NCBI GenBank assembly: GCA_965225945.1
Contig: CBDDBZ010000038.1
Span: 288,001 to 352,000 of the forward strand
Direction of reading: 5' to 3'
Source of the DNA: Alphaproteobacteria bacterium
Lineage (GTDB): Bacteria > Pseudomonadota > Alphaproteobacteria > GCA-2731375
DNA: 64,000 bases
Part shown: piece by piece, positions 6,833 through 15,806 of the stretch
How positions within the stretch are numbered: position 1 is the stretch's first letter
How the letters are laid out: every line of letters starts with the position of its first letter
The notes under the pieces: model-generated
The model's input: only the letters and a program-made list of their open reading frames with translations
The model's database searches: none
Told to the model about the DNA's origin: nothing
Translations under genes and position numbers: made by a program

Positions 6833-7225
6833 ATGAGCGATCGCGGCTTGCGCGCGCCGCTGGCCCGGGTCCGAGGTCTCGGCTCGGCCAAGGAAGGCAC
6901 CCAACACTGGTGGATGCAACGGGTGACGGCGATCGCCCTGGTGCCGTTGGTGATCTGGTTCGCCGCCTCGATCGTCTCAGTTGTCGGCGCCGATCACGCC
7001 ACCATCGCGGCCTGGCTCGCGCGACCGCTGCCGGGCCTGATGATGATCCTGTTTCTCGCCACCAGCTTCTATCACCTGATGCTGGGATTGCAGGTGGTGA
7101 TCGAGGACTACGTGGCCGACGGCTGGTCCCGCGTCGCCGGTCTGCTGGTCATGAAGTTTGCCTGCATCGCGCTCGGATTGGCCTCGATCCTGGCGGTTCT
7201 TCGCTTCACCGTGGGGGGCTTATAA
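6833..7225 (+). CDS. sdhD: Succinate dehydrogenase membrane anchor subunit
   Basis: [32 protein letters not shown]. Confidence 0.97.
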
Positions 7226-7226
7226 G

Positions 7227-9014
7227 ATGGCCCAAGCCTATCCGATCATCGAACATAGCTATGACGTCGTCGTGGTCGGCGCCGGCGGCTCGGGCCTGCG
7301 CGCGACCATGGGGCTGGCCCAGGCCGGCCTGTCGACGGCCTGTATCTCCAAGGTCTTCCCGACCCGCAGCCACACCGTCGCCGCCCAGGGCGGCATGGCC
7401 GCGGCGCTGGGCAACATGGGCGAGGACGACTGGCGCTGGCACATGTACGATACCGTCAAGGGGGCGGACTGGCTGGGCGATCAGGACGCCATCGAATACA
7501 TGTGCCGCGAGGCGCCGCGCGCCGTCCTGGAACTGGAGCACATGGGCCTGCCGTTCTCGCGAACCGAGGAGGGCAAGATCTACCAGCGCGCCTTCGGCGG
7601 CATGACCACGCGCTACGGCGAAGGCACGGCGCAGCGGACCTGTGCCGCCGCCGACCGCACCGGCCACGCCATCCTCCATACCCTCTACCAGCAGTCGCTG
7701 CGCTACGATTCCGACTTCTTCATCGAGTATTTCGCCCTCGACCTGATCGTCGAGGACGATGTCTGCCGGGGCGTGATGGCCTGGTCGTTGGAGGACGGCA
7801 CGATCCATCTGTTCCGGGCCCACATGGTGGTGTTGGCGACCGGCGGTTACGGGCGCTGCTACTTCTCCTGCACCTCGGCCCATACCTGCACCGGCGACGG
7901 CAACGCCATGGTGTTGCGCGCCGGCCTACCGTTGCAGGACATGGAGTTCGTGCAGTTCCACCCGACCGGGATTTACGGCGCCGGCATGCTGATCACCGAG
8001 GGCACGCGCGGCGAGGGCGCCTTCCTGACCAATTCCGAGGGCGAGCGGTTTATGGAGCGCTACGCGCCGAGCGCCAAGGACCTGGCGAGCCGCGACGTGG
8101 TCAGCCGCGCCATGACGCTCGAGATCCGCGAGGGCCGCGGCGTCGGCCCGAAGGGCGACCATATCCTGTTGCACCTCGACCATCTCGATCCCGAGGTGAT
8201 CGGGGAGCGGCTGCCCGGAATCTCCGAATCGGCGCGGATCTTCGCCGGCGTCGACGTCACGGCTGAGCCGATCCCGGTGCTGCCGACGGTGCACTACAAC
8301 ATGGGCGGCATCGCCACCAATTACCTGGGCGAGATGGTGACGCTCGAGGGCGAGGATCCGGACGCGATCGTGCCCGGCCTGATGGCGCTGGGCGAGGCCG
8401 CCTGCGTCTCGGTGCACGGGGCCAACCGGCTCGGCTCGAATTCGCTGATCGATCTCGTGGTCTTCGGCCGGGCGGCGGCGCTCCGCGCGGCCGAGGTGGT
8501 CGAGCCGGGCGCGCCGCACAGCGACCTGCCACGCGGCGCGACGGACCGCTGCCTGGCGCATTTCGACAAGCTGCGCCACGCCGACGGCGACACGCCCACC
8601 GCCCGGATCCGCGACGAAATGCAGCACACCATGCAGACCAACTGCGCCGTGTTCCGCACCGGCGAGGTGCTGGCTGACGGCATGGAGCTGATCAAGGGCG
8701 TCTGGTCGCGGATGGCGCACATCAAGGTGAGCGACCGCTCCCTGATCTGGAACTCCGATCTGGTGGAGACCTTGGAGCTCGACAATTTGCTGCGCCAGGC
8801 CCTGGTCACCATGGCCGCGGCCGGCAACCGAACCGAGAGTCGAGGGGCGCACGCCCGCGAGGACTTCCCCGATCGCGACGACGACGAATGGATGAAGCAC
8901 TCGCTCTCCTGGCTCGAGGACGACGGCACGGTCGAGATCGACTATCGCCCGGTACATACCTACACGCTCACCGACGACGTGCAGTACTTCCCGCCCAAGG
9001 CGCGGGTCTATTAG
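7227..9014 (+). CDS. sdhA: Succinate dehydrogenase flavoprotein subunit
   Basis: [42 protein letters not shown]. Confidence 0.99.
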
Positions 9015-9032: not shown

Positions 9033-9812
9033 ATGGTTAAATTCGCGCTGCCGGCCAATTCCAAGGTCGGGAAAGGCAAGCACTACAAGGCCTCGGGCGG
9101 TGGCGAGGTTCGCCGCTTCCGGGTCTATCGCTGGAATCCCGACGATGGTGCCAACCCCAGCCTCGACACCTACGAGCTCGACATGGCGAGTTGCGGGCCG
9201 ATGGTCCTGGACGCGCTGATCAAGATCAAGAACGAGATCGACCCGACGCTGACCTTCCGCCGCTCGTGTCGCGAAGGGGTTTGCGGCTCCTGCGCCATGA
9301 ACATCGGCGGCATCAATACGCTCGCCTGCACCCTGGCCAACGCCGAATTTGAGGGCGACATCGCCATCTATCCCCTGCCGCACTTGCCGGTGATCAAGGA
9401 TCTGGTGCCGGATCTCTCGAACTTCTTCGCCCAATACGCCTCCATCGAGCCGTGGCTGAAGTCCAAGACTCCGGCGCCGCCCGACGGCGAGCGGCCGCAG
9501 AGCGAAGACGACCGCCGCAAGCTCGATGGCCTTTACGAATGCATCCTGTGTGCCTGCTGCTCGACCAGTTGCCCGAGCTACTGGTGGAACGACGAGCGCT
9601 ATCTCGGCCCGGCGATTCTGCTGCAGTCCTATCGCTGGCTGATCGACAGCCGCGACGATGCCACCGGCGAGCGGCTCGACGACCTCGAGGACCCCTTCCG
9701 GCTCTATCGCTGCCACACGATTCTGAACTGCGCCAAGGCCTGCCCGAAGAACCTCAATCCGGCCAAGGCGATCGCCGAGATCAAGAAAATGATGGTCAAG
9801 CGGCGAATCTAG
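9033..9812 (+). CDS. sdhB: Succinate dehydrogenase iron-sulfur subunit
   Basis: [34 protein letters not shown]. Confidence 0.99.
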
Positions 9813-9839
9813 GGGCGGCGCCAGCGAATCGCGTATCGG

Positions 9840-9865
9840 GAGCCGCCCTCGGGCGGCTCTTTTTT
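9840..9865 (+). terminator. Rho-independent terminator of sdhCDAB; target of the IIC intron
   Basis: GAGCCGCC-CTCG-GGCGGCTC followed by T6. Confidence 0.9.
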
Positions 9866-10276
9866 GTGTGCCTGGCATGGCGCTGATCTAGGAGATGGAA
9901 GTTCTCTACGGGCCGTAACGACCGGAACCGATAGCTGAAGGCAACTGCGTCGCCGCGAGGCGGGGTGGGGAGGAAGCGGGAGGCAAAATCTGGAGCGGAC
10001 GAACAGAAACCGGATATCAGGCCGGTGCGATGGGGTAAGCCAGCAATGGATGGCGAGGCCCGATAGTCGTTCGGACGTCGCATTGGTAAATCCGGCCGCG
10101 ACCGGAGGAAAGATCAGCGTCTTACCCAGGGAGATCTCCAGCGCTCTCGGGCGATCCGAGTAGCGAACCGGCGACGGGGAGCGATGGCGGTGGAGAAGTC
10201 AGCCGAGGCCATAGTAGGGGCCGAGAGGCGCCGAAGGGCCGAATCCGAGTAGCAAGGAGCAGTCTGGATCAACTCG

Positions 10277-10318
10277 ATGAGCGTGGAGCGGCGGCAAGGC
10301 GGTGTTTATCAACTGGAC
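10277..10318 (+). pseudogene. Original 5' end of the intron RT ORF (MSVERRQGGVYQLD), separated by the IS4 insertion
   Basis: Ends in CAA CTG GAC (QLD, the TSD), read in the same codon phase as QLD at 11542-11550. Confidence 0.75.
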
Positions 10319-11541
10319 CATGGTACACGACGGCATTTACGTAGGACGTTGAAAAGGTTGTAGGATTCCCGATTCACTCCACGACGAGTCAAGAGGGAAA
10401 TCATGCGAGACAACCCGATCAACGCCCTGCGTGAGACGCTACGATGCGGCTTCGCCTTTCGCAAGAGCCGTCTGGAGAGCCTTTGCGTCTTGGTCTTCGG
10501 CGTGTTCGTCGCCCGGACGGTGAACCTCTCTCACTTGGCCTGCCACTTTCCGGGGCGCGCGCGATCCAGCTCCAACTATCGGCGCCTGCAACGGTTTTTC
10601 GAGCAAGTCGATTTCGATTACGATCGCCTCGCCGAGTTCCTGGTCGCGATGATGGGGCTCCAGGCGGGGCCGTGGCGGCTGACCATGGACCGGACCAACT
10701 GGCGGCTGGGTCGCCGCGACGTCAACATCTTGATGATCGGCATCGTCAACCGCGCCATCGCCATTCCCGTGTGCTGGCGGGTGCTCGACAAGGCGGGCAA
10801 TTCCAATACCAAGGAGCGGATCGCGATCCTCGAACACGTCCTCCGGCTCTTCGGGGTCGACAAGATCGCCAGCCTCCTGGCCGACCGGGAATTCATCGGC
10901 GACGCCTGGCTGGCATGGTTGCAGGAAAAGGCCATCCCCTTTCACATCCGCATCCGATCCAACATCAAGATCGCCAACACGCGTGGTCGCATGGTCAAGG
11001 CGAGGGAGCTGTTTCGCGACCTCAAACCCGGGGAAAGCCGCATCCTCTCCAACGCCAGGCGCCTCTCGGAGGCCAGAAAACCCAAGGCCAGGCCCGTCTT
11101 CGTCGCCGCGCTCCATCTCAAGACCGGCGAACTGTTGATCGTCGTGACCAACGACGCGCCCGAGGAGGCCTTGGCCATCTACGCCCAGCGCTGGCAAATC
11201 GAGACCCTCTTCGCCGCCTTGAAAACCCGTGGCTTCAACCTCGAAGACACCCACATGACCGACCCGGAGCGCATCTCCAAGCTCACCGCCGTCCTTTCCA
11301 TCACCTTCTGCTGGGCGCACAAAGTCGGCGATTGGCTCCACGAGGCCGAGCCGATCCGCCTCAAAACCCACAAAAGGATGGCAAAATCCATCTTCCGATA
11401 CGGTTTCGAGTGGATAAGGCGACAGCTCGTCAATCCTATCGACAGGCGTCAAGCCATTGAGCTGATTCGTTTCCTCGTCCCCGGAAAACCACCAGTCCAG
11501 GTGCCCAGGCCAAAGCCAGCATGAACGAGTCGTGTACTGTG
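10319..11541 (+). mobile_element. IS4-family (ISAba1/IS10-like) insertion sequence
   Basis: IRs CATGGTACACGAC / GTCGTGTACTGTG; 9-bp TSD CAACTGGAC (10310-18, 11542-50). Confidence 0.92.
10403..11524 (+). CDS. IS4-family DDE transposase
   Basis: YRRLQRFF, LTMDRTNW, ADREFIG, YAQRWQIETLF...KTRGFNLEDTH. Confidence 0.93.
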   Translation: MRDNPINALRETLRCGFAFRKSRLESLCVLVFGVFVARTVNLSHLACHFPGRARSSSNYRRLQRFFEQVDFDYDRLAEFLVAMMGLQAGPWRLTMDRTNWRLGRRDVNILMIGIVNRAIAIPVCWRVLDKAGNSNTKERIAILEHVLRLFGVDKIASLLADREFIGDAWLAWLQEKAIPFHIRIRSNIKIANTRGRMVKARELFRDLKPGESRILSNARRLSEARKPKARPVFVAALHLKTGELLIVVTNDAPEEALAIYAQRWQIETLFAALKTRGFNLEDTHMTDPERISKLTAVLSITFCWAHKVGDWLHEAEPIRLKTHKRMAKSIFRYGFEWIRRQLVNPIDRRQAIELIRFLVPGKPPVQVPRPKPA

Positions 11542-12948
11542 CAACTGGACCTTTTTGACGAGGCCCTGATGAAGACGCTGCGCCCCGAGGCCTCCGGTGA
11601 CGGCGGAACCGGAACTGGACCCTGCGAGGAGCCACAAGCGATCACGGCGTTGGAACAGCAACGAGCCTTGACGCAAGACCTGATGGAACGGGTGGTGAGT
11701 TCAGCCAACCTGAGCCAAGCCTACAGGCGGGTGAAGGCGAATAAGGGGTCGGCGGGGGTGGATGGGATGACCATCCTAGACCTACGGCCCTGGCTCGCCG
11801 ATCACAAGGATGCGCTGGTGGCGCAGTGGGCCCGAGGCGGTTATCGGCCACAACCGGTGAAGGGGGTCTCGATTCCCAAGCCGGGGGGCGGGATGCGGCA
11901 ATTGGGCATCCCGACGGTGCTGGACCGTCTGGTTCAGCAAGCCATCCTGCAAGTCCTTCAGCCAATTCTCGATCCGGCTTTCTCGGGTTCGAGTTTTGGC
12001 TTCCGTCCGGGACGGAGCGCCCACGATGCTCTGGCCCAAGCAGGCAAATACGTCGCCGAAGGCCACGGGATCGTGGTCGACCTGGATTTGGAGACGTTCT
12101 TCGACCGGGTCAAGCACGACATTCTGATGTCCCGACTGGCTGGGCGCATTGGCGACAAGCGCCTGCTGCGCATCATCCGGCGTTTCCTGCAAGCGGGGAT
12201 GATGCAAGCCGGCGTCTGCATCCGGCGCCATGAGGGTACGCCGCAAGGCGGCCCGCTGTCGCCGCTGCTGGCCAATCTTCTACTGGACGACCTGGACCAG
12301 ATGCTGGAGGCGCGGGGCCATCGCTTCTGCCGTTACGCCGACGATGTGAACATCTATGTTCGCAGCCAGGCGGCGGGCGAACGGGTGATGGCCTCGGTGG
12401 CCAAATTCCTCCAAGGCAGGTTGCATCTTCAGATCAACCAGGAGAAAAGTGCCGTCGCTCCGGTCTGGGAACGCAGGTTCCTCGGCCACCGACTTTTGCC
12501 GGATGGATCGCTCGGCATTGCGCCCCAAAGCCTGCGGCGGGCGAAGCAACGGGTTCGCGAAATCACCCGGCGCAACCGGGGCGTCAGCCTCGCGCGCATG
12601 GTCGGCGAGCTGAACAGCTTCCTCGCCGGTTGGGTGACGTATTTCCGCCATGCCCGTTGCGGGAGACAACTACGGCGTCTCGACGGATGGATCCGCCGAA
12701 AACTGCGCTGTGTCCGGCTCAAGCAATGCAAGCGCACCAAGGCGCAAGCGGATTTTCTGCGAAGCCTTGGGGTGCCCGAATGGCGGGCATGGATCTTGGC
12801 TCTCTCCGGCAAGGGCTGGTGGCGCAAGTCCCTCAGCCCCCAAGCCACCGAGGCCATGACCCTGGCTTGGTTCGACGGCCAGGGGCTCATCCCCCTAGCC
12901 GACAGGTTCCGAGCGTTGCAACTAACCGGAAACCGCCATGGTACGTAG
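11521..12948 (+). CDS. ltrA: Group II intron reverse transcriptase/maturase
   Basis: NKGSAGVDG, IPKPGGGMRQLGIPTVLDR, GFRPGRS, DLDLETFFD, GTPQGGPLSPLL, RYADD, maturase X domain. Confidence 0.95.
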   Translation: MNESCTVQLDLFDEALMKTLRPEASGDGGTGTGPCEEPQAITALEQQRALTQDLMERVVSSANLSQAYRRVKANKGSAGVDGMTILDLRPWLADHKDALVAQWARGGYRPQPVKGVSIPKPGGGMRQLGIPTVLDRLVQQAILQVLQPILDPAFSGSSFGFRPGRSAHDALAQAGKYVAEGHGIVVDLDLETFFDRVKHDILMSRLAGRIGDKRLLRIIRRFLQAGMMQAGVCIRRHEGTPQGGPLSPLLANLLLDDLDQMLEARGHRFCRYADDVNIYVRSQAAGERVMASVAKFLQGRLHLQINQEKSAVAPVWERRFLGHRLLPDGSLGIAPQSLRRAKQRVREITRRNRGVSLARMVGELNSFLAGWVTYFRHARCGRQLRRLDGWIRRKLRCVRLKQCKRTKAQADFLRSLGVPEWRAWILALSGKGWWRKSLSPQATEAMTLAWFDGQGLIPLADRFRALQLTGNRHGT

Positions 12949-13025
12949 AACGTATGCCCGGTGGTGTGGGAGGCGGGAACCGCGAGGAACCCGCCTACCC
13001 GATTGGTTCTTCGCGGATTGAATTA

Positions 13026-14050
13026 GGCTCAATTCGTGAATTGTATGCGTCACCTTGTTACGGCGGCGGCGAGGCAGGCTCGGTCATTGGCGCCGGGGGC
13101 GAGGCCGACGAGGTGGAACCAGCTCAGGTAGTTGTCCAGATAGCGGGTGGCGATGCCGCGGCGGGGACGCAGGAAGTCCTTCAACCGGCTGTGGCGGCTG
13201 TTCACCGTCTGCACATGCAGATCGCCCCGAACCCGTTCCCCCATCGAGCGGTTGAGTGCTTCGTGGCTCACCCCGAGCGCGGCGGCGCACGGTGGGTAGC
13301 TCGCGCCGCCGTCGGAGACCAGCAGGGCGTCCTTCGCGACCACCGGGTCGAGGGCAGCCGTGAGCGCCGCCGCATCGACCCTGGGCAGCACCGCGCTGAC
13401 CGTCGTTCCGCTCCGGTCCGCCGCCATGAGAACCGGTACCTGCTCGCGCGAGAGGCCGCGCTTCTTCGCCTTGCCGCCCCGCCGCCGTGCCTTGCGCCCC
13501 AGCCCGCGCGCGCCCTTCCGGCTCTCCAGGACGTAGGTCTCGTCCGCTTCCACGATCCCCTTGAGCACCTCCGAATCGCTTCGCGCCGCCGCCAGAAACC
13601 GGTGACGCCAGCGGAACGCCGTGCTCACCGCCACGTCGCAGCGCGCCGCCGAGGCCTTCACCGTCTCCCCCTTCGCCAGCGACGCCCCGAACGACAGCCA
13701 GCGTTCCTTGTGGTGCAAGCCCGACAGCGGCGTACCGCTCAGCGCGTTGAAGGTCCTGCCGCAGCCCTTGCACTGGTAGCGCCGCAGACCCCGCGCCATA
13801 CCGCGCGAAACCGCCCCTTCGCTCGCGCAGTGCGGACAGCGCCGGGCCTCGTCCACACCAAGCTCGATCGCGGCCTTCGATGCCTCGCCCTCGCTCCGGC
13901 CCGACAGCACCGCGAGCGCCTCGCGCCGCTACGCGCGCGTCAGCCCGCGCGCCGCCGAAAGCCACACCTGGAAACCCTTGCTGTCCATAACCCAACCTCC
14001 TGACGTTCCAGGCACTCTATCACTAATGCATACAATTCACGAATTGAGCC
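13026..14050 (-). mobile_element. IS1595-family insertion sequence
   Basis: IRs GGCTCAATTCGTGAATTGTATGC / GCATACAATTCACGAATTGAGCC; 8-bp TSD TTGAATTA (13018-25, 14051-58). Confidence 0.93.
13050..13988 (-). pseudogene. IS1595 transposase with an in-frame TAG at codon 20 (13929-13931)
   Basis: AGGAGG RBS then MDSKGFQVWLSAARGLTRA*RREALAVL; Zn ribbon CPHC/CKGC; VEADETY, VSDG, HVQTVNSRHSRLK. Confidence 0.85.
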
Positions 14051-14894: not shown

Positions 14895-15806
14895 TCATGC
14901 GGCGGGCCTGAGTGACATCGCGGTGTGCCACGCCTGACGAGCTTGAGCGGGGCTCAGGTAGCCGTTCTTCTCCACGATCCACTGGGCATTGTACTGTTCG
15001 ACGAACCCGCGGACGGCGTTCCGCAGCTCCGCGATGTTGCGGTAGATGCGGCCATGGATGATCTGTTCCTTGAGCGTGCGATTGAACCTCTCGGCGACGC
15101 CGTTGGTCTGGGGCTGTTCGACGAAGGCGTAGGACGGCTGGATGCCCCAGAACTTGATCTGGTTGGTGAAGTGGTCCGACAGATACTGGGAGCCGTGATC
15201 CATCCGCAAGGCCAGCCCCCGCGCCGCACCGGCGGAGGTCGAGGCATACAGCCTCGCAAGCCCCATGGAGATCGGCTGAAGGGCGGCGAAGCGGTCGCCT
15301 CGCTTGCACACATGCCAGCCGACGCACTCGGCGTTCCAATGCTCGATGGCGGTGAATATCCAGCCCCAGCCGTCGTCCACCGTGAACACCCGAACGCCGT
15401 CCGTGCCCCACATGAGGTTGGGGGCATGGGTGATGATCTCACCGACATGGGGATTTCCGCCACGGCGGCGGCAGCGATGGGGCGAGAGCAGGTTGTTCTC
15501 GCGCATCACCCGGAGCACCCGCTTGCGGGAAACACGGATGCCACGACAGACCCGAAGCCGAGCCCAGACCTTGCGGTGTCCCTCGCCCTCCCAGGGGGAT
15601 GCCTCCAGGTCGGCCTCGATGGCCACCAGCAGAGCCTCGTCCGAGATCGAGGGCTTCGGTCCCCGGCGCTTTGCTGGTGGGCGCTCAGCGGTGGCCTGCT
15701 GCCGGGATTTCATGGCGTAGAACGAGGAACGGGCAAAACCCCAGGCCGCACAGACCCGCTGGAGGCCGTAGGCCAAACCCGTGCCGGGAGAGGTGGCGGC
15801 ACTCAT
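14895..15806 (-). CDS. Transposase OrfB (HTH + integrase core)
   Basis: GEGHRKVWARL, WGTDG, LRMDHGSQY, PQTNGVAERFNRTLKEQ. Confidence 0.9.
   Translation of the reverse strand: MSAATSPGTGLAYGLQRVCAAWGFARSSFYAMKSRQQATAERPPAKRRGPKPSISDEALLVAIEADLEASPWEGEGHRKVWARLRVCRGIRVSRKRVLRVMRENNLLSPHRCRRRGGNPHVGEIITHAPNLMWGTDGVRVFTVDDGWGWIFTAIEHWNAECVGWHVCKRGDRFAALQPISMGLARLYASTSAGAARGLALRMDHGSQYLSDHFTNQIKFWGIQPSYAFVEQPQTNGVAERFNRTLKEQIIHGRIYRNIAELRNAVRGFVEQYNAQWIVEKNGYLSPAQARQAWHTAMSLRPAA

Follow-up and report, generated by a model that had tools for sequence, protein, structure and literature searches.

An IS4-family insertion in a group IIC intron brings an outward ATG into frame with the intron reverse transcriptase, probably through ordinary mobile-element nesting

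The window, the whole 64,000-nucleotide stretch of alphaproteobacterial DNA analyzed here (G000:C38:288001-352000, where G000 is the genome of the window), contains a group IIC intron with an IS4-family insertion sequence (IS) inside the gene of its own reverse transcriptase (RT)/maturase. The transposase stop codon of the IS overlaps an ATG that reads in frame into the interrupted RT gene, and a sequence-only reading had proposed that the two elements form a composite. Our analysis, in which two other genomes (G001 and G002) were compared, favors a simpler explanation. The arrangement is probably ordinary mobile-element nesting, in which an element of an IS burst entered a terminator-targeting IIC intron and fitted the RT frame by chance. 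The stop/start overlap is the chance result of an IS end that always bears an outward ATG.

The insertion lies at codons 12-14 of the RT gene and duplicates the residues QLD, exactly where the sequence-only reading had placed it. On the forward strand, the native RT start and codons 1-14 now open a 28-codon stub (10277-10363) that ends with TAG at 10361-63. The 9-bp target duplication CAACTGGAC, which reads CAA CTG GAC and encodes Q12, L13, and D14, is found on the left (10310-10318) and on the right (11542-11550) of the 1223-bp IS (10319-11541, + strand). The two intron copies of G000 that are free of this IS read GGTGTTTATCAACTGGACCTTTTTGAC, with a single copy of CAACTGGAC. The transposase gene (10403-11524, + strand, 373 aa) terminates with a TGA at 11522-24, which overlaps the ATG at 11521. 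The IS closes with 21 nt (ATG AAC GAG TCG TGT ACT GTG) that encode MNESCTV, and the frame continues as QLDLFDE. The product is a fused RT/maturase open reading frame (ORF) of 475 aa, composed of MNESCTV and native codons 12-479 (11521-12948, + strand, stop codon TAG at 12946-48). In this ORF, 11 native residues were swapped for 7. The overlap and its read-through via the right inverted repeat into the whole RT, as previously described, are real in all their coordinates.

The inserted element can be assigned to the IS4 family by its IS4-type DDE transposase, its inverted repeats, and its fixed-length target duplication. The transposase matched Pfam DDE_Tnp_1 and NCBIfam NF033591 (264.1 bits, cutoff 152), and the boundaries of the element were set from 48 full-length copies in G000, most of which were 99.8-100% identical. 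The terminal inverted repeats are imperfect, with CATGGTACACGAC on the left and GTCGTGTACTGTG on the right, the right end being a near-complement of the left. The genome contains 57 right ends of this element. The 9-bp duplication was perfect in 42 of the 48 full-length copies, and these 42 sites showed a preference for T at positions -5, -4, and -1 before the duplication (27-34 sites) and for A directly after it. The landing site in the intron offers TTTAT upstream of the duplication, which matches this preference. G000 has gone through a massive recent IS expansion, in which an IS1595-family element reached a copy number similar to that of IS4, with most copies 99.4-100% identical.

The outward ATG...GTG end was present in all 57 IS4 right ends of G000. 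Because the ATG and the following sense codons are fixed in the IS end, a fusion to flanking DNA depends on nothing but strand (1 in 2) and frame (1 in 3). The frames that stayed open for at least 100 codons past the IS end numbered 10 of 57 in frame 0, 9 of 57 in frame 1, and 14 of 57 in frame 2. A chance in-frame fit, which the sequence-only reading had allowed for, is therefore favored by the generic ATG and by the absence of frame 0 enrichment. Enrichment of in-frame fusions among the IS4 copies, considered as a candidate pattern, was refuted by this three-frame control.

The read-throughs at other IS4 ends were scanned against Pfam for the eight longest of the 56, leaving out three of 100-108 aa and the shorter ones. 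Three of the eight reached a Pfam domain, 60-80 residues past the IS end. They are located at L003 (G000:C32:242520-243605), L004 (C15:19002-19916), and L008 (C14:36428-37024), where the read-through reaches ABC_sub_bind (ABC substrate-binding protein), HpcH_HpaI (HpcH/HpaI aldolase), and FliX, respectively. Since the domains begin 60-80 residues past the IS end, these ISs probably lie upstream of genes and not inside them.

The intron around the IS occupies 9866-13003 on the + strand, which is 3138 bp with the IS and 1906 bp without the IS and one copy of the duplication. Its ends, GTGTG at 9866 and CCCGAT at 13003, were placed at the limits of homology among three intron copies in the genome. 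The 5' end was set from the window copy and copy 3, as copy 2 is 5'-truncated by another IS, and the 3' end was set from all three. Two ribozyme segments were detected on the + strand by Rfam, group-II-D1D4-3 at 9949-10120 (domains I-IV, 133.2 bits, gathering score 32, E 2.3e-28) and group-II-D1D4-1 at 10160-10239 (51 bits, gathering score 35). Domains V and VI with the 3' splice site lie at 12931-13003 (+ strand). Their match to Rfam Intron_gpII (27.4 bits) is below the gathering score of 40, so this part of the anatomy is read from the displayed alignment and from the identity among copies, the domain V/VI sequence being the same in all three down to the final base. With this qualification for domains V and VI, the RT domains and both splice ends named in the sequence-only reading are present, and the IS is indeed nested in the domain IV/ORF region, the intron being otherwise complete.

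The intron can be classed as group IIC by its maturase without an endonuclease domain, its terminator insertion site, and its ribozyme domains. The 5' end GUGUG agrees with the GUGYG of group II introns, and domain V opens with CCGCC where the model has GAGCC, which gives a CGC triad. A CGC triad in domain V is typical of IIC introns. In the RT/maturase, Pfam recognized a complete RVT_1 domain (1-205 of 205) and GIIM, and no endonuclease domain. The protein also covered positions 2-352 of the 353 in TIGR04416 (395.6 bits, cutoff 300), and its closest solved relative was the GsI-IIC RT (E 7e-136). A hairpin and a T run stand directly before the intron in all five close copies in which the native 5' flank was inspected (the window copy, copy 3, and three copies of G001). 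The DNA hairpin of a terminator is described as the recognition determinant of IIC introns (PMC3898094). In the window, this target motif is an intrinsic terminator with a 10-pair stem and a T run (9838-9861, + strand), followed by GTGTG at 9866.

The sequence-only reading had further suggested that the intron could retrohome with the IS as cargo, and had named other intron copies, with and without the IS at this site, as the check. This proposal found no support. G000 has three intron copies, all of them hit by ISs, and only the window copy carries the IS4 element at codons 12-14 of the RT gene, so the IS-bearing intron is single-copy in this genome. In copy 2 (L001, G000:C38:400800-407300), an IS630-like element occupies the 5' end, an IS256-like element lies in domain I, and a 1135-bp insert is located at the RT stop. 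Nevertheless, this copy retains an intact 479-aa RT ORF with the native start (L001:2904-4343). Copy 3 (L002, G000:C24:69800-78000) is broken by two inserts, one of 4135 bp that includes an IS21-like gene and one of 748 bp in the RT. Two of the inserts that break copies 2 and 3 are uncharacterized.

The IS-bearing form was likewise not found in either of the two compared genomes. In the sister genome G001, at least 22 copies of a 1907-bp intron with 91-95% identity are present; none of them is joined to the IS, which is itself absent from this genome. In G002, the IS4 element and an 80%-identical intron are both present and not joined. The exact left intron-IS junction had no match in the two collections searched, genome_contigs and metagenome_contigs, where near relatives may be outside the scans and one base change hides a match. 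This lack of recurrence is not final, as three other assemblies hold the fused ORF. Each of them has it on one contig, which fits a single inherited locus and leaves room for a second one. The IS-bearing intron seems to have been passed on vertically at a single locus, without moving as a composite. As to the intron family itself, the at least 22 near-identical copies in G001 hint, indirectly, that its members may splice or be retromobile.

Logan contigs of two DNA-type and two RNA sequencing runs were compared with 9500-13300. Such contigs break at repeats and lose rare forms. In the DNA runs, 10309 was joined to 11542, which is the IS-free form of the intron and fits copies 2 and 3. The joint of 9865 to 13004 expected for spliced exons was not in any run contig, with the same loss at repeats and of rare forms. 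No RNA contig spanned the IS-RT junction, where rare forms drop out; one reached 11542 and then entered the flank of another IS copy.

The part of the RT that was cut off by the IS is conserved. Nearly all of the best 120 RT relatives are 479 aa long and begin with MSVERQQG..YQxDLFDE. A DLFDE-type motif occurs in the first 60 residues of 118 of 119 homologues and at the native position in 108. Moreover, among 16 aligned introns, whose sources include Acidobacteriota, Planctomycetota, and Alphaproteobacteria as well as others, the native start ATG and the nucleotides near it are conserved. The conserved upstream start and the position of DLFDE indicate that homologous RTs begin upstream of QLD and that the IS cuts a conserved ORF. 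If the homologues had started downstream of QLD, the overlap would have been irrelevant to the RT; they begin upstream, and the start therefore matters.

The same region of the RNA appears to be structured. The 16 introns were aligned around the ORF start (alignment A1, leaving out the divergent locus L057 and the duplicates L025, L044, and L046). In this alignment, helix 3 pairs 10299-10310 with 11571-11581 (both + strand), with compensatory changes in 8 of 11 pairs. Helix 4 (11583-11629, + strand) lies inside RT codons ~21-37 and has compensatory changes in 5 of 11 pairs. In the consensus fold, 92.6% of cells were paired, compared with 33-44% when the partners were slid by 1-3 columns, and none of 500 shuffles reached the observed covariation score. 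A smaller, invariant hairpin, without covariation, joins AAGGAG (10255-60) to the start-codon region. The 28-nt apical loop of helix 3 (RT codons 8-24) took up the IS 8 nt past the last pair, and the two strands of the helix, formerly 28 nt apart, are now separated by 1260 nt. The proteins of other introns bind mainly to the start region of domain IV. If the protein binds there in this intron as well, the split of helix 3 could impair RNA-protein assembly.

The first ~55 RT codons thus overlap two hairpins with covariation support (10253-10310 and 11571-11629 in the window; contiguous at L001:2862-3032). The RT family is widespread, and this overlap may explain why the nucleotides that encode its low-complexity peptide GDGGTGTG are conserved from phylum to phylum.

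The RT of the window copy also shows possible signs of drift. A comparison with copy 2 over 1404 nt gave three nucleotide differences in the fused RT, all of them nonsynonymous (I41V, A98T, and W103L, from window to copy 2). At position 103, where 118 of 119 homologues have Leu, the window copy and P0134 have Trp. That all differences are nonsynonymous and include L103W suggests relaxed constraint, the changes being too few for a test.

Taken in order, ordinary nesting would have proceeded as follows. An IS4 element, multiplied to ~50-60 copies in G000, would have transposed into one copy of the IIC intron and landed in the apical loop of helix 3, beside the T-rich flank that the IS prefers. 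Its end with the outward ATG would then give a fused ORF automatically in the right strand and frame. The likeliest state of the product would be a crippled or inert intron copy, since the native start gives only a 28-codon stub, 1.2 kb of IS separates the strands of the hairpin, and Trp has replaced a near-invariant Leu.

Among the alternatives, an RT/maturase supply that does not depend on the IS ATG survives best, and we consider it unlikely. The protein would start at 11569 or 11683, or would be provided in trans by copy 2, and the intron might be spliced out of sdh read-through RNA even if its mobility is poor or lost. Two in-frame starts do exist downstream. The ATG at 11569 has a GAGG 5 nt upstream (GAGG-N5-ATG), and the ATG at 11683 aligns with the N-terminus of the GsI-IIC RT. 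The first ~50 residues are absent from this well-studied active enzyme, in whose structure (6ar1) residue 3 aligns with query residue 54, so that its start corresponds to query residues 52-54. One homologue, P0069, also begins at MERV. Since both lack the extension, the catalytic RT does not appear to need it, and the ORF of copy 2 is intact. On the other hand, the extension with DLFDE was kept in 118 of 119 homologues, suggesting that it is needed, and most homologues have Leu where the ATG at 11569 encodes Met. The general view that intron proteins act chiefly in cis counts against supply by copy 2. As a candidate for the native start of the RT family, the ATG at 11569 was rejected on account of the same Leu and of the upstream ATG conserved across phyla.

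Translation of the fused RT from a coupled transposase-RT bicistron was the core of the composite proposal. Here, ribosomes would restart at the ATG at 11521, the fused RT would splice the intron, and the IS would retrohome as cargo in a composite element. We regard this as improbable. It is favored by the ATGA overlap with its in-frame ORF, by the complete RT and maturase domains in that ORF, and by splice ends and domains V/VI identical to those of the other intron copies. The IS also has no terminator-like site inside it on the + strand, homologous RTs begin upstream of QLD so that a start there matters, and the fused ORF is open in each of the 4 assemblies where it occurs. Nevertheless, the IS-bearing intron is present in one copy per genome or assembly, with each 475-aa form on one contig, and its junction was not found in G001, G002, or the two collections. 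The ATG is generic to the IS without enrichment of frame 0, and its Shine-Dalgarno match is poor, with an AGG 11 nt upstream. The conserved hairpin is split, and L103W affects a near-invariant site. Furthermore, the IS added 1232 nt of cargo to the intron. Cargo in domain IVb of Ll.LtrB is described as lowering splicing and retrohoming, and more than 1 kb as abolishing retrohoming in L. lactis (PMC8524655). The window cargo exceeds this size, although Ll.LtrB is a IIA and not a IIC intron, which makes the limit a caution and no proof.

Besides this difference in intron class, several observations weigh against a simply inert, chance-made nest. The 468 native codons of the fused ORF are all open. 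Three further 475-aa proteins that begin with MNESCTVQLD (P0128, P0132, and P0134), known from protein sequences alone, were found on one contig each and differ by 1-3 residues from the window form. The fused ORF is thus open in three more assemblies, which indicates that the arrangement persisted through some strain divergence, and L103W is not present in P0128 or P0132. A few homologues begin with MAYQTDLFDE or MTYQTDLFDE, some of them only 3 residues before the Q, and such naturally short N-termini imply that a replaced short N-terminus may be tolerated. Outside domain IV, the window ribozyme aligns almost without gaps with a relative, the 1907-bp intron of G001, whose copy number of at least 22 marks it as evidently active. 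The alignment has no gap over the 5' 453 nt and a single one over the 3' 1462 nt. ATGA stop/start overlaps are, in addition, a classic setting of translational coupling. It is very improbable, in our view, that the right end of this IS acts as a portable start, where termination-reinitiation after in-frame insertions close to the 5' end of a gene keeps the downstream protein, and here the intron RT, made, so that the intron persists and still splices through at least four strains, or, in the boldest form, occasionally retrohomes with its IS cargo.

Compared with known systems, the window element is closest to ordinary IS nesting in group II introns. Many bacterial group II introns are described as truncated or fragmented and associated with IS elements (PMC2504315). 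The window copy agrees with such cases in its DDE transposon and clean target duplication, and all three copies of G000 have been hit by ISs. It differs in that a stop/start overlap at the insertion happens to restore an in-frame start, with the RT open over its whole length. To our knowledge, based on a limited literature search, there is no description of an IS restoring a start in an intron in this way. This detail does not make the nested element a different kind of thing.

IStrons are chimeras of a group I intron and an IS200/IS605-type element, in which a ribozyme and a DNA transposon are physically joined (PMC4227781). They contain a group I intron, recur as one chimera at many loci, and rely on their IS part for movement. 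By contrast, the chimera in the window is single-copy, its IS lies inside the intron and not beside it, and no joint mobility was seen. The overlap resembles that of coupled genes (ATGA/TGATG) in the four-base stop/start overlap of ORFs on the same strand. Unlike coupled operon genes, however, the window overlap, a candidate for coupling, was made by transposition and has no strong ribosome-binding site. The IIC introns of GsI-IIC, O. iheyensis, and B. halodurans share with the window intron an RT/maturase without endonuclease and a position behind a terminator hairpin. In comparison with these, the window RT is extended at its N-terminus by ~55 residues, whose codons overlap two conserved RNA hairpins, and the window copy holds a 1.2-kb IS in the N-terminal region of the RT and a second IS 22 nt into the 3' exon.

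If the fused RT is made and active, the element would be a natural DNA transposon riding in a retroelement, with an IS end that softens the damage of its own insertion, and would be relevant to the engineering of cargo-carrying targetrons. The present evidence points mainly to an IS burst that erodes a IIC intron family in an IS-rich genome. More solid by-products of the analysis are the overlap of the first ~55 RT codons with two RNA hairpins and the head-to-tail intron arrays of G001. In that genome, intron starts lie 1907 bp apart on C1 (~315436, 317343, and 319250) and are found on C9 at 21212/23118 and 30985/32891 (loci L012, L020, and L021). The spacing equals the intron's own length of 1907 bp, which indicates that these copies form head-to-tail tandem arrays.

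The intron is preceded on the + strand by an sdhA-like ORF (7158-9014, named from its translation) and an sdhB-like gene (9033-9812, taken from the ORF list and named from its translation), which provides the 5' exon and the terminator for the intron. In the 3' exon, an IS1595-family element of 1025 bp (13026-14050, - strand) starts 22 nt beyond the 3' splice site. It is flanked by TTGAATTA, duplicated at 13018-25 and 14051-58, and has dozens of copies in the genome with at least 99% identity. Further downstream, an ORF at 14895-15806 (- strand) resembles an IS3-type transposase orfB, as judged by its translation. DNA containing the window stretch is present in sponge-metagenome sequencing runs.

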